Origin: a virus
Taxonomy: Duplodnaviria; Heunggongvirae; Uroviricota; Caudoviricetes
Strand: one strand, 5' to 3'
Length of the DNA: 12,246 nt
Virus record (IMG/VR): IMGVR_UViG_2548876950_000019
Made by a program: the position numbers. Numbering within the stretch: position 1 is the first letter of the stretch; each line of letters starts with the position of its first letter. This document shows positions 3,001 through 6,000 of this stretch, piece by piece.

Positions 3001-6000
3001 TCATCAGGCTTTTTCACTGATTTAGCGTTGATCAGACTGTTCATTCCCGCAGCCGTAGTCATTTGCGGAGTAATGTCTCGCTCAACGCGCGGTGCCGTTT
3101 CCTGTAATTCGTCAGGGGTGTAAACACCGAGAAGTACATCAGGAGCGTGCAGGCGAGCCCATCGTTTCGTGCAAAGATAGGCGAGCTGCTGGCGCGGATC
3201 CTGTTCCCACAATGGAGAGTTACGCACTCCGGCTTGCGCCATACTGATGGTAAGCTCACGTGGTTCTGCTTCTCCTTTAAGAACTGCTGACACAGTTACC
3301 GTCAGATTCGGTGATTTATCTGTTTTGCCGTTAACATTCGACCAGTCACCGCTCCAGCGATAATTCAGGCGTGTCGCCAGCAGGCTGGAAGAGGATACGA
3401 CCGCGTTTACCAACTGTGCTTCGTAGCCTAACGTTCCGTTTACCACATGCGTTTTCTGCGCCACGGCGAACGGGTTCATTCCCCACTGTGCCGCCTGCAT
3501 GGTCACCGCCAGGCAATCGGCAGGTTTGCCTTCAAGATGTTTCGGTACAGTCGCTTTGCTTTGTGACATCAACTCCGCGAAACGCACCAGTTGATTCATG
3601 CCCTCGGGGCTGAAGATTGCCGCAGCAGTGCCTACAGTTGCGCCTGGTTGTGATGTGATTGCGATATCATTGCTCATACATACATATCCTGTTTACGTGC
3701 CCAGTCAGGACGTTTAATAATTTCCACTCCGCCCCATTCATCGTTGATGCGGCATTCGTGATAGGTATTCAGATCCCGGCGGAACAGAGCGTGCCCGGCA
3801 TCGACATCCGGCGCATCCAGCTCGAACACGCGTACCGGATACCGACCACAATCAATGCTTTCGCTCACGGCAAGAAAGAAAAAACCATGCGGCTGACCAG
3901 TAACCCTCATTGCGCCTTCGCGGTACATTGCGTCCTGCACGTGGTAGCGGAATTCCTCGATGTGACGTGCAAAACGCTCCATATCTGCAACCTTTTTCAC
4001 GTCGACGATCACGTTGTGCTCGTTCAGCCATTTGTCTGGACGAATTCGGCACAACTCACCAGTCTCTTCATCGTTCCAGTACATTGACGCTTCGCAGTAA
4101 CCAGGTGCTTCCAGCATCCAGCGTGCCGCCGGGTGAGCCATTGCGCTATCACGCATCAGCTCCAGTTTCCGCCACTGCTCGGCATCAAGTACCGTAATCC
4201 CCATATCCGCCACATCACGAAGAAATGCCTCTTCGTCAGCTTTACCTTGTTTCGTCCGACGATCGAATTTCGGTGAAACAATGAAGCGTTTGTCGAACTC
4301 TCCAGGCTCCAGAAGCAGACAGTGCAATGCGGTTCCCATATCCAGTGCAGACTTTTTCTCTTCGTCTTCTGGTGCTGCCTGAACCCATTTAAGAAGCGCC
4401 GGATTCTTGGCAACCATGTCCAGTTGCGACTTACTCACGCCGTCCCCGGCGTGGTAGTCTTCGTTGCTGATGTCGAAATAAATTCCCGGCTTCATGCCGC
4501 GTCCCTCTGCCCATCAAGCTGATCAGCCAGATCCCAGCGGGCGATAATTGCCATTGCCTCGCGCCGGTAGGCATCCATCAGTTCTTCGAACTCAGGGCTG
4601 TCTTTAGCAGCCTCCAGCACTTCCTGACGAACGCCTTTGCCTGTTACAACGTCGAAAGTTGAGGCCAGTTGGTGAAGCCGGATACTCTCAATCAGTTCAA
4701 CTTGTCGGTCATATAGCTGTTCTGACAGGCGGTAGTCCTTGTCGAATGCCAGCATGATTTTTTGAAGATTTTTCTGCTGATTAACGTTCATTATCATCCC
4801 TCCCATATCTCGTTATCGTTGGCCACATCGCGAGCTTCTTTGCTGACGAAAGCCCACTTAATGCCTTCCTGTAAGGTGCGGAACTTCCAGCTCATGAATC
4901 CGCATGCAGTAACGCAGTACCAACCGTTGATGATTTTCCACTGCATAACTTGTTACCTCGGTCTGTTACCGTTTAGGTAATAATTATGCGTATCTGGTTT
5001 GATGTCAATAGATATGAGTTAAAAAAATTACCCATTAGGTAATTGAACAGGCAATAAAAAAGCCGCCAGAAGGCGGCTTACTTACTGAAAAATATGATTT
5101 TATTGTTTGTTTTTTTCGTTCTGGTTGATGACAAATTCAATGTAACTTTCGATCTTTGCTTTCTCGGTTTCGGGTAACAATGCGTAGCGCGAGCGGTCAT
5201 AGTTGATAGTTGCAGGGTCATGCGGGTGAATCAGTAGTTCATATCCGTGACGCCCGAATGCGGATGCAACATTCTCCAGGGTGGAAATGGAAACACTGAC
5301 CTCATTGTTTAACAGGCGGCTGATTGTCACCTGGGCGACGCCGGATGCGCGGTGAAGTTTTCCCTGTGTTGAAAGGTCGCGGCTTTCGCTCATCCAGCGT
5401 TCCAGGTTGTGAGCCGCCAGCTGACCAATGTCGCTTGGGCCGACAGGCTGAAACCCCTCCTGAGAAAGCGAGCGATCGATATCAAGCCAGTTACGGGGTT
5501 TATTGGCGGCAGCTTCAATTTTTCGCGCAACCTGGTCGCCGATAACCTTCTTGCCAAGAGCCCAGCGGTTTACCAGATTTGCCTGAGTTCCAAGTTTTTC
5601 TGCCATCCGCGTCTGAACACCATTGAATTCACGGTCGATCAAGTCGTTGAGATTTTGCCTGCGGACGTCCTGGATACTTTTCATTTTCTGGAGAATCGCC
5701 TCATATATGAATCAGTAGATGATTCAATTTAAAGCAATATTACCCAACAGGTAAATGCACCCCATAGGTAACTATCCTTGATTTTTGTTACCTTATGGGT
5801 GAATATTTATTATCTGAAATAAATATCAGGCAATAGCTATGAGCGATAACGGACATTTCGATTTCAAAAAGCACTGGCTTGCACTTACTCCGGATGAGCG
5901 TGAAGCCTTCGCACAGGAAGCCGGAACGACGAGTCACTATATCCAGACTCACTTAACAGGTAAGCGCAAAATGCCAGGTAAAGTATTGATGAATGGGCTT

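Follow-up and report, generated by a model that had tools for sequence, protein, structure and literature searches.

An SPC32H-type Rep repressor in a phiV10-like prophage sequence, its paired operators and its probable release by a small LexA-controlled antirepressor

The phage sequence IMGVR_UViG_2548876950_000019 (Caudoviricetes), a stretch of 12,246 nucleotides that was analysed over its whole length and is here called the window, carries an immunity region with a putative repressor gene, rep, on its minus strand. An earlier reading of the sequence (the original prediction) had described the product of this gene as a protein of 194 residues at the cI position. This was borne out: the open reading frame at 5100-5684 is real, lies on the minus strand and starts with ATG. 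Rep occupies the cI position because it is divergent from a cro-position gene, is followed at its 3' end by a terminator, and is flanked by integrase and recombination genes on the left and by DnaT-like and lambda-P-like replication genes on the right. The core of the locus is as follows.

5100-5684, minus strand: rep, 194-residue immunity repressor of the SPC32H Rep family (open reading frame with ATG start, homology, identity)
5060-5079, minus strand: intrinsic terminator after rep (8-bp stem with six G-C pairs, T run)
5839-6069, plus strand: cro-position gene of 76 residues, divergent from rep (phrog_35 'transcriptional repressor', E=5.6e-13)

The rep product was matched by the transcriptional regulator family phrog_8 (E=4.5e-27). 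The cro-position gene is homologous to phiV10 p41 and epsilon15 gp39, and the phiV10 record annotates a terminator at the place equivalent to that after rep.

Judged by homology, the product of 5100-5684 is already known as the lysogeny repressor of a phiV10/epsilon15-like (Uetakevirus) prophage and belongs to the SPC32H Rep family. A tblastn search of the phage collection found the protein at 100% identity in phiV10 (gp40), in vB_EcoP_ZX5 (ORF21) and in 11 other E. coli phage records, at 98.5% in TL-2011b, at 75-78% in Enterobacter phages, and at 42-45% in Klebsiella phages, epsilon15, SPN1S and SPC32H (41.8% for SPC32H rep). A large-database search extended the family to 86 homologs across the Enterobacteriaceae, and the first 10.7 kb of the window were 96-98% identical to phiV10-type phages. 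Among the proteins of the PDB, phmmer matched Rep to 5D50_A, 'Repressor', over residues 1-190 of 194 (E=4e-42) and to 5D4Z, a C-terminal fragment of the same protein, over residues 89-190 (E=4e-20). The same two entries, 'Crystal structure of Rep-Ant complex from Salmonella-temperate phage' (5D50) and 'Crystal structure of Repressor' (5D4Z), were the top two Foldseek matches of a structural model of Rep; both are structures of the Rep protein of the Salmonella phage SPC32H. The family has also been noted in database records. The text for phiV10 gp40 reads 'two helix-turn-helix motifs (Pfam PF01381); similar to putative repressor epsilon15p38', and the RefSeq record of epsilon15 cites 'HHpred: 5d50_A Repressor' and annotates repressor-binding sites. 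In addition, experiments on ZX5 have shown that ORF21, which is identical to Rep, represses lytic genes: its overexpression abolished free phage and lowered the holin and endolysin transcripts by more than 99.9%, and in the same phage an antirepressor counteracts lysogeny (PMC9782041). The locus itself is thus of little discovery value, as an identical protein has been annotated and experimentally tested and the family has crystal structures and a published mechanism.

For SPC32H Rep, an N-terminal DNA-binding domain, a middle dimerisation domain (MDD) and a C-terminal domain termed CAD have been described; the latter tetramerises Rep, also binds the antirepressor Ant, and has a p53-like fold consisting of a beta-strand plus a helix (PMC9986798). 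The window's Rep can be divided in a corresponding way.

5475-5684, minus strand: Rep residues 1-70, N-terminal helix-turn-helix (HTH) domain and probable DNA-reading head (AlphaFold2 helices 4-59, charge, conservation)
5217-5438, minus strand: Rep residues 83-156, second HTH-fold unit, equivalent of the SPC32H MDD (Pfam, AlphaFold2 helices 83-151)
5103-5216, minus strand: Rep residues 157-194, C-terminal module, equivalent of the SPC32H CAD (aligns with residues 163-198 of 5D4Z/5D50 at 50% identity)

The two tandem HTH units that the original prediction had recognised are supported by Pfam, by the AlphaFold2 model and by homology to SPC32H Rep; the third module at about 157-194 had been overlooked. 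Over the whole of Rep, Pfam HTH_3 scored 38.5 bits against a cut-off of 23 and matched two stretches, of which 106-147 was the better. Searched alone, residues 83-156 passed the thresholds of both HTH_3 (27.0 bits) and HTH_26 (26.3 bits), and residues 1-75 stayed under the cut-offs of HTH_3 (16.1 bits) and YdaS_toxin (20.6 bits). The first unit, weak in Pfam, is nevertheless established because the whole protein is homologous to the SPC32H repressor, whose structure has been solved, and the predicted structure agrees with it. This single-chain AlphaFold2 model, made with 25 homologs and reaching a mean predicted local distance difference test score (pLDDT) of 75.6, places helices at 4-19, 24-31, 35-43 and 50-59 in the first unit and at 83-100, 107-114, 118-125, 133-142 and 147-151 in the second, with a disordered linker at 74-83 connecting the two. 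At the C-terminus the monomer model has a low-confidence segment at 157-166, where the beta segment is not confidently modelled, followed by a long helix at 172-193; no Pfam family matched residues 157-194. Alignment of the two HTH units to each other by hhalign was in register but weak (E=8e-4, probability 24%), and a duplication is not claimed.

The two units differ in the sequence of helix 3. In the first, the presumed recognition helix NLVNRW spans residues 36-41 (window 5579-5561), and N36, R40 and W41 are invariant across 25 Rep homologs. In the second, Q118 and R123 at the helix-3 position are likewise invariant across 25 close homologs, and the unit superposes in Foldseek on DNA-binding XRE domains (3VK0, TM 0.76). 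The net charge is +5 for the N-terminal domain (family mean +4.2) and -2 for the second HTH (family mean -0.8). The identity to SPC32H Rep, 42% overall, amounts to 54% in the N-terminal domain, 30% in the MDD and 50% in the CAD. Charge and identity profile together are consistent with the N-terminal domain reading DNA and the second HTH being the MDD.

No match to Peptidase_S24 (PF00717) was obtained for Rep in Pfam, even at E<=10, and no S24 fold occurred among the PDB matches of the model in Foldseek, which comprised only 5D50/5D4Z and XRE-type HTH proteins. The 38 residues that remain after the second HTH are also too short for an S24 domain. Domain search and fold comparison thus agree with the earlier statement that Rep has no LexA/CI-type peptidase region. 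As it lacks an S24 domain, Rep is not expected to undergo RecA-stimulated self-cleavage. By analogy to its homolog SPC32H Rep, which is inactivated by Ant, it should be a non-cleavable repressor whose induction depends on an antirepressor, as had also been predicted.

The DNA sites that Rep probably reads were identified as palindromes of the form TTACC-N5-GGTAA, of which the window holds five perfect copies where none would be expected (none in 200 shuffled sequences), and near-matches lie at 5757 and 5788. They are arranged in three groups.

4966-5042: left-hand operator pair, 62 bp apart (TTACCGTTTAGGTAA at 4966-4980 and TTACCCATTAGGTAA at 5028-5042)
5740-5802: right-hand operator cluster in the rep/cro intergenic region (TTACCCAACAGGTAA at 5740-5754, GCACCCCATAGGTAA at 5757-5771 and TTACCTTATGGGTGA at 5788-5802)
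8071-8147: third operator pair, 62 bp apart (TTACCTGGTGGGTAA at 8071-8085 and TTACCTCGGGGGTAA at 8133-8147)

In the right-hand cluster, the operator at 5788-5802 overlaps the -35 hexamer and the spacer of a rightward promoter-like site at 5785-5813, and the three-site layout, with spacings of 17 and 30/31, recurs in SPC32H and epsilon15. The left-hand pair brackets a leftward early promoter-like site, TTGACA-N17-AATTAT (10/12), with its -35 at 5008-5003 and its -10 ending at 4980; this pair is conserved at 62 bp in phiV10, SPC32H, epsilon15 and Tyrion, and at 63 bp in the Klebsiella phage BUCT711, whose other pair is spaced by 62 bp. In the epsilon15 record these operators carry the annotation of repressor-binding sites. 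The third pair is situated upstream of a DUF1064/resolvase-like gene (8151-8495), brackets a rightward promoter at about 8.1 kb and is kept at the same position in five other genomes. Altogether, six Uetakevirus genomes from four host genera share the operator motif and its pairing at 62 bp, with a single 63-bp exception.

It had been suggested that a Rep monomer might recognise each palindrome with its two HTHs. This does not fit the operators, since they are perfect inverted repeats with identical half-sites and therefore need two identical, dyad-related heads, which speaks against one chain with two different HTHs; those of Rep differ in helix 3, in conservation and in net charge, which is of opposite sign. 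Furthermore, SPC32H Rep on DNA is a tetramer, its dimer binding weakly and one tetramer being enough to repress, and the N-terminal pairs that read each palindrome derive from different Rep dimers (PMC9638917). We infer that one Rep tetramer may correspond to one 62-bp operator pair, which fits the two DNA-binding heads of the tetramer. The 62-bp pairs around promoters thus offer a simple test system for the model of a two-headed Rep tetramer.

A variant of this model, in which Rep is SPC32H-like but its second HTH (83-156) keeps an auxiliary DNA contact, for example between operators spaced by 62 bp, was also considered. It would account for the scores of this unit in HTH_3 and HTH_26, for its superposition on 3VK0, for the invariance of Q118 and R123 and for the conserved 62-bp spacing. 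However, the unit is negatively charged both here and in the family mean, it is the module least conserved with respect to SPC32H, SPC32H Rep has a proline in place of Q118 and yet the same operator half-site, no further conserved DNA motif was noticed next to the palindromes, and the literature assigns dimerisation to this domain (PMC9986798). We therefore regard an auxiliary contact as unlikely.

The antirepressor of SPC32H is encoded by a gene of 86 residues adjoining the tailspike gene, and phiV10 p24, at the same location, is 88% identical to it. The cognate Ant of the window's Rep would accordingly be a protein of 85 residues encoded beside the tail-fibre gene, outside the window. In the prophage order the small ant locus lies more than 20 kb past the right end of the window, and no small-Ant homolog was indeed found in the window by tblastn (best E=2.6); on the virion map of phiV10 the locus lies about 6 kb upstream of int. 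The two genes are tightly associated: of the 36 records in the phage collection that encode full-length Rep, 35 also have the small Ant, which occurs in no record outside this set. The one without it is BP9, 138 kb long, in which rep is close to the end of the record. The prophage most similar to the window has a small Ant that is 87% identical to that of SPC32H, and a LexA box, TACTGTATATTTATACAGTT, is located just upstream of the ribosome-binding site. A canonical LexA box was also found directly upstream of ant in SPC32H, phiV10, epsilon15 and Tyrion. Within the window, a search for CTGT-N8-ACAG gave no perfect site and eight sites with one mismatch versus 4.4 expected, which is not significant; none of the latter is near rep or near the AntA-family gene at 11239 that is described below.

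Some copies of the small Ant module are part of longer proteins. The 'anti-repressor' ORF4 of ZX5 (L006 1078-1773) is a Bro-N protein that ends in a copy of the small Ant module (42% identity, E=1e-19), and it is experimentally active as an anti-repressor (PMC9782041). Fusions of Bro-N and small Ant, adjoining small ant, are also encoded by phiV10 p23 (L002 19646-20230) and Tyrion gp20 (L005 20417-21121), and the closest prophage has two BRO-N genes in its small-ant region. As a separate observation, the LexA box of small ant is preceded, at a distance of about 50 bp, by a Rep-operator-like site in the genomes L001 to L005 (for example at 20877-20891 in phiV10 and at 20013-20027 in L001), and small ant may be under dual control by LexA and Rep.

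Taken together, the overall best explanation is a non-cleavable Rep of the SPC32H type that is released by a small Ant under LexA control, to which we assign a probability of roughly 0.87. In SPC32H, Rep is inactivated through binding of Ant (PMC9638917, PMC9986798; Rep-Ant complex in PDB 5D50), tetrameric Ant binding two Rep dimers (PMC9638917), and synthesis of Ant follows self-cleavage of LexA (PMC7380047, citing Kim and Ryu 2013). Transferred to the window's Rep, residues 1-70 would use the conserved NLVNRW helix to read the half-site TTACC; residues 83-156, having lost a reading role, would form the Rep dimer; and residues 157-194 would join two dimers into a tetramer and provide the docking site for the antirepressor. 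The tetramer would offer two pairs of N-terminal domains, each of which would sit on one 15-bp TTACC-N5-GGTAA palindrome. Upon DNA damage, active RecA would bring about self-cleavage of LexA and thereby expression of the LexA-repressed 85-residue ant, as proposed from the relatives of the window and from the SPC32H literature. Ant would then bind the C-terminal domains of Rep, and Rep would be released from the DNA. In the work of Kim and colleagues in PNAS in 2016, Ant is reportedly docked on the C-terminal domain of Rep and not on its DNA-binding surface.

Induction should hence be independent of repressor cleavage, yet dependent on SOS and RecA. The original prediction had drawn from the missing peptidase domain that induction is RecA-independent, and this part has to be given up, as small ant is preceded by a LexA box in phiV10, SPC32H, epsilon15, Tyrion and the closest prophage. 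The absence of an S24 domain does not equal independence of RecA; SOS control would rather have been shifted to a LexA-repressed antirepressor.

Several points weigh against this explanation. The cognate ant and its LexA box lie outside the window, and their presence in the source genome is deduced from relatives. Because part of the window is a lambdoid segment (see below), rearrangement of the source element is possible. Identity between Rep and SPC32H Rep is 42%, and 30% in the MDD, and the oligomeric state and Ant binding of the window's Rep are assumed by analogy; the domain roles and the LexA control in SPC32H were taken from secondary descriptions. Finally, ant of BUCT711 (17054-17314) has no perfect adjacent LexA box but only a Rep-operator-like site at 16965, which suggests that some members of the family may lack SOS control of Ant.

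A second candidate for an antirepressor is present in the window itself.

11239-11862: AntA-family gene, 207 residues (Pfam AntA, PF08346, and P22_AR_C, PF10548)

This gene had been proposed as the partner of Rep, in a model in which AntA inactivates Rep independently of RecA and a Rep monomer reads the palindrome with two HTHs. Apart from its two domains, its product matches PHROG families named 'anti-repressor Ant', and the gene has a strong promoter-like site of its own, TTGACA-N18-TATATT, at 10996-11025 (11/12), with no LexA box or Rep operator nearby; Rep does possess two HTH-fold units. The 5' leader of the gene contains a match to the Rfam family sRNA-Xcc1 (11111-11199, plus strand, 69.3 bits versus a gathering threshold of 53), which is the only Rfam match and is unrelated to rep, and a hairpin followed by a T run at about 11070-11092 lies in the same leader region. 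The unit of leader (10996-11238) and gene is conserved at about 98-99% in lambdoid prophages.

However, AntA shares nothing with the Ant module that binds Rep. No similarity to this module was detected by tblastn or BLASTP, there was no match to phrog_450, a search of the PDB gave chance matches only (E>0.8) and none to the Ant chain of 5D50, and there was also no similarity to the Ant-like C-terminus of ZX5 ORF4. Neither is AntA inherited together with Rep: it is missing in all of the Rep-bearing sequences compared, six complete Uetakevirus genomes and nine prophage left arms. The identical protein of 207 residues was instead found in ten lambdoid prophage contexts, at loci without Rep, between ead/DUF551 genes and xis-int. 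In nine of the nine contexts with a visible immunity region, the repressor beside it is an S24-type CI accompanied by Cro, CII and N. With these results, and with the operator symmetry and the tetrameric homolog discussed above, the proposed pairing of AntA with a monomeric Rep is very improbable, and the gene cannot be retained as the partner of Rep.

The presence of AntA next to a phiV10-like immunity region is accounted for by the structure of the window, which, as far as sequence comparison goes, is a hybrid made up of parts of two prophages. Over positions 1-9485 its counterpart is a phiV10-like prophage (99.7% identity) that adjoins guaA in E. coli Z1323CEC0019 and encodes the same Rep protein. 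The segment with AntA, 10080-12246, has a 100% match in a lambdoid prophage of this E. coli genome (CP148401.1), at the int-proximal end of that prophage. The junction lies somewhere in 9486-10079, a stretch that matches neither parent prophage, and no entry of the phage collection or of the complete E. coli collection spans it. The final 135 bases of the window (12112-12246) code for the N-terminal 45 residues of what is presumably lambda Xis; in the lambdoid loci the homolog of this gene belongs to Pfam Exc. Look-up of the AntA protein led to lambdoid prophages only, and look-up of the integrase only to Uetakevirus prophages without AntA. The hybrid arose either by recombination or inversion through ead/DUF551 homology, or as an assembly chimera.

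AntA may instead be a trans-acting antirepressor of another repressor, namely the S24 CI of the donor lambdoid prophage or other lambdoid CIs, and be irrelevant to Rep, its adjacency being due to recombination or mis-assembly. Every copy of the identical AntA sits close to the int-proximal end of the lambdoid leftward (PL-side) block, adjoining xis/int and together with an S24 CI; both parents of the window are present in the E. coli genome CP148401.1; and the P22_AR_C domain is common to AntA and P22 Ant. P22 Ant inactivates lambdoid c2/CI repressors. On the other hand, an antirepressor function of AntA is putative, the role of AntA/Bro-N/KilA-N-type domains, which bind DNA, is uncertain (PMC9782041), and the stretch that holds the junction (9486-10079) matches neither parent. 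We consider the chances of this reading to be even. The opposite possibility is that AntA, brought in by lambdoid recombination, has become a second, SOS-independent antirepressor of Rep that is expressed from its LexA-independent promoter and sRNA-Xcc1-like leader. This appears highly doubtful; if it were true, the hybrid element would have gained a new induction input that couples two unrelated prophages. The presence of AntA says nothing on how Rep is induced. More generally, a neighbouring gene named Ant is not evidence for a partner, and here it is part of a lambdoid module that usually comes with a cleavable CI.

Among known systems, SPC32H is the one to which the preferred explanation, an SPC32H-type Rep released by a LexA-controlled small Ant, refers most directly. 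Its Rep and that of the window are alike in their full-length homology, their three modules, their genomic position and the NLVNRW helix, and both phages have TTACC-N5-GGTAA operators with 62-bp pairs; the relatives of the window carry a small, LexA-boxed Ant of the SPC32H type. The conservation of the N-terminal domain and the CAD fits the conserved operator half-site and the conserved Ant. Differences beyond the overall divergence are a linker that is six residues shorter in the window's Rep and a central 5 bp of the operators in which G/C content differs, being richer in the window. A side observation concerns immunity: at 42% identity the two repressors yet share NLVNRW and the TTACC half-site, and the operators differ mainly in the central 5 bp, which raises the question whether the two phage groups are really heteroimmune. 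With phiV10 gp40 and ZX5 ORF21 there is no difference in the protein, and the window differs from these phages downstream only, in accessory genes beyond about 9.5 kb.

With lambda CI and P22 C2, Rep shares the arrangement of a cI-position gene divergent from a cro-like gene and of palindromic operators overlapping early promoters, and its N-terminal HTH is distantly similar to the N-termini of lambdoid CIs (36% over 70 residues, E=1e-5). In contrast, lambda CI, P22 C2 and LexA combine an HTH with a Peptidase S24 autocleavage domain that Rep lacks, and by analogy the Rep family would oligomerise through an HTH-fold domain and a p53-like tetramerisation motif rather than through an S24 C-terminal domain. 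The C-terminal module of SPC32H Rep has been described with the same beta-strand plus helix fold as RcopLS20 and the p53 tetramerisation domain (TetDloop) (PMC9986798), the corresponding segment of the window's Rep, 157-166, being of low confidence in the AlphaFold2 model. The gene at 11239 has both of the domains known from P22 Ant and AntA/AntB-family antirepressors, but it is not associated with the Rep family and travels with a cleavable CI. The closest parallels in regulatory logic are Tum of coliphage 186 and the antirepressors of Gifsy and Fels-2 (Lemire et al. 2011), where LexA likewise acts at the antirepressor promoter and the antirepressor binds the repressor (PMC7380047); unlike these proteins, the Rep/Ant pair proposed here is of the SPC32H type (PHROG 450 module).

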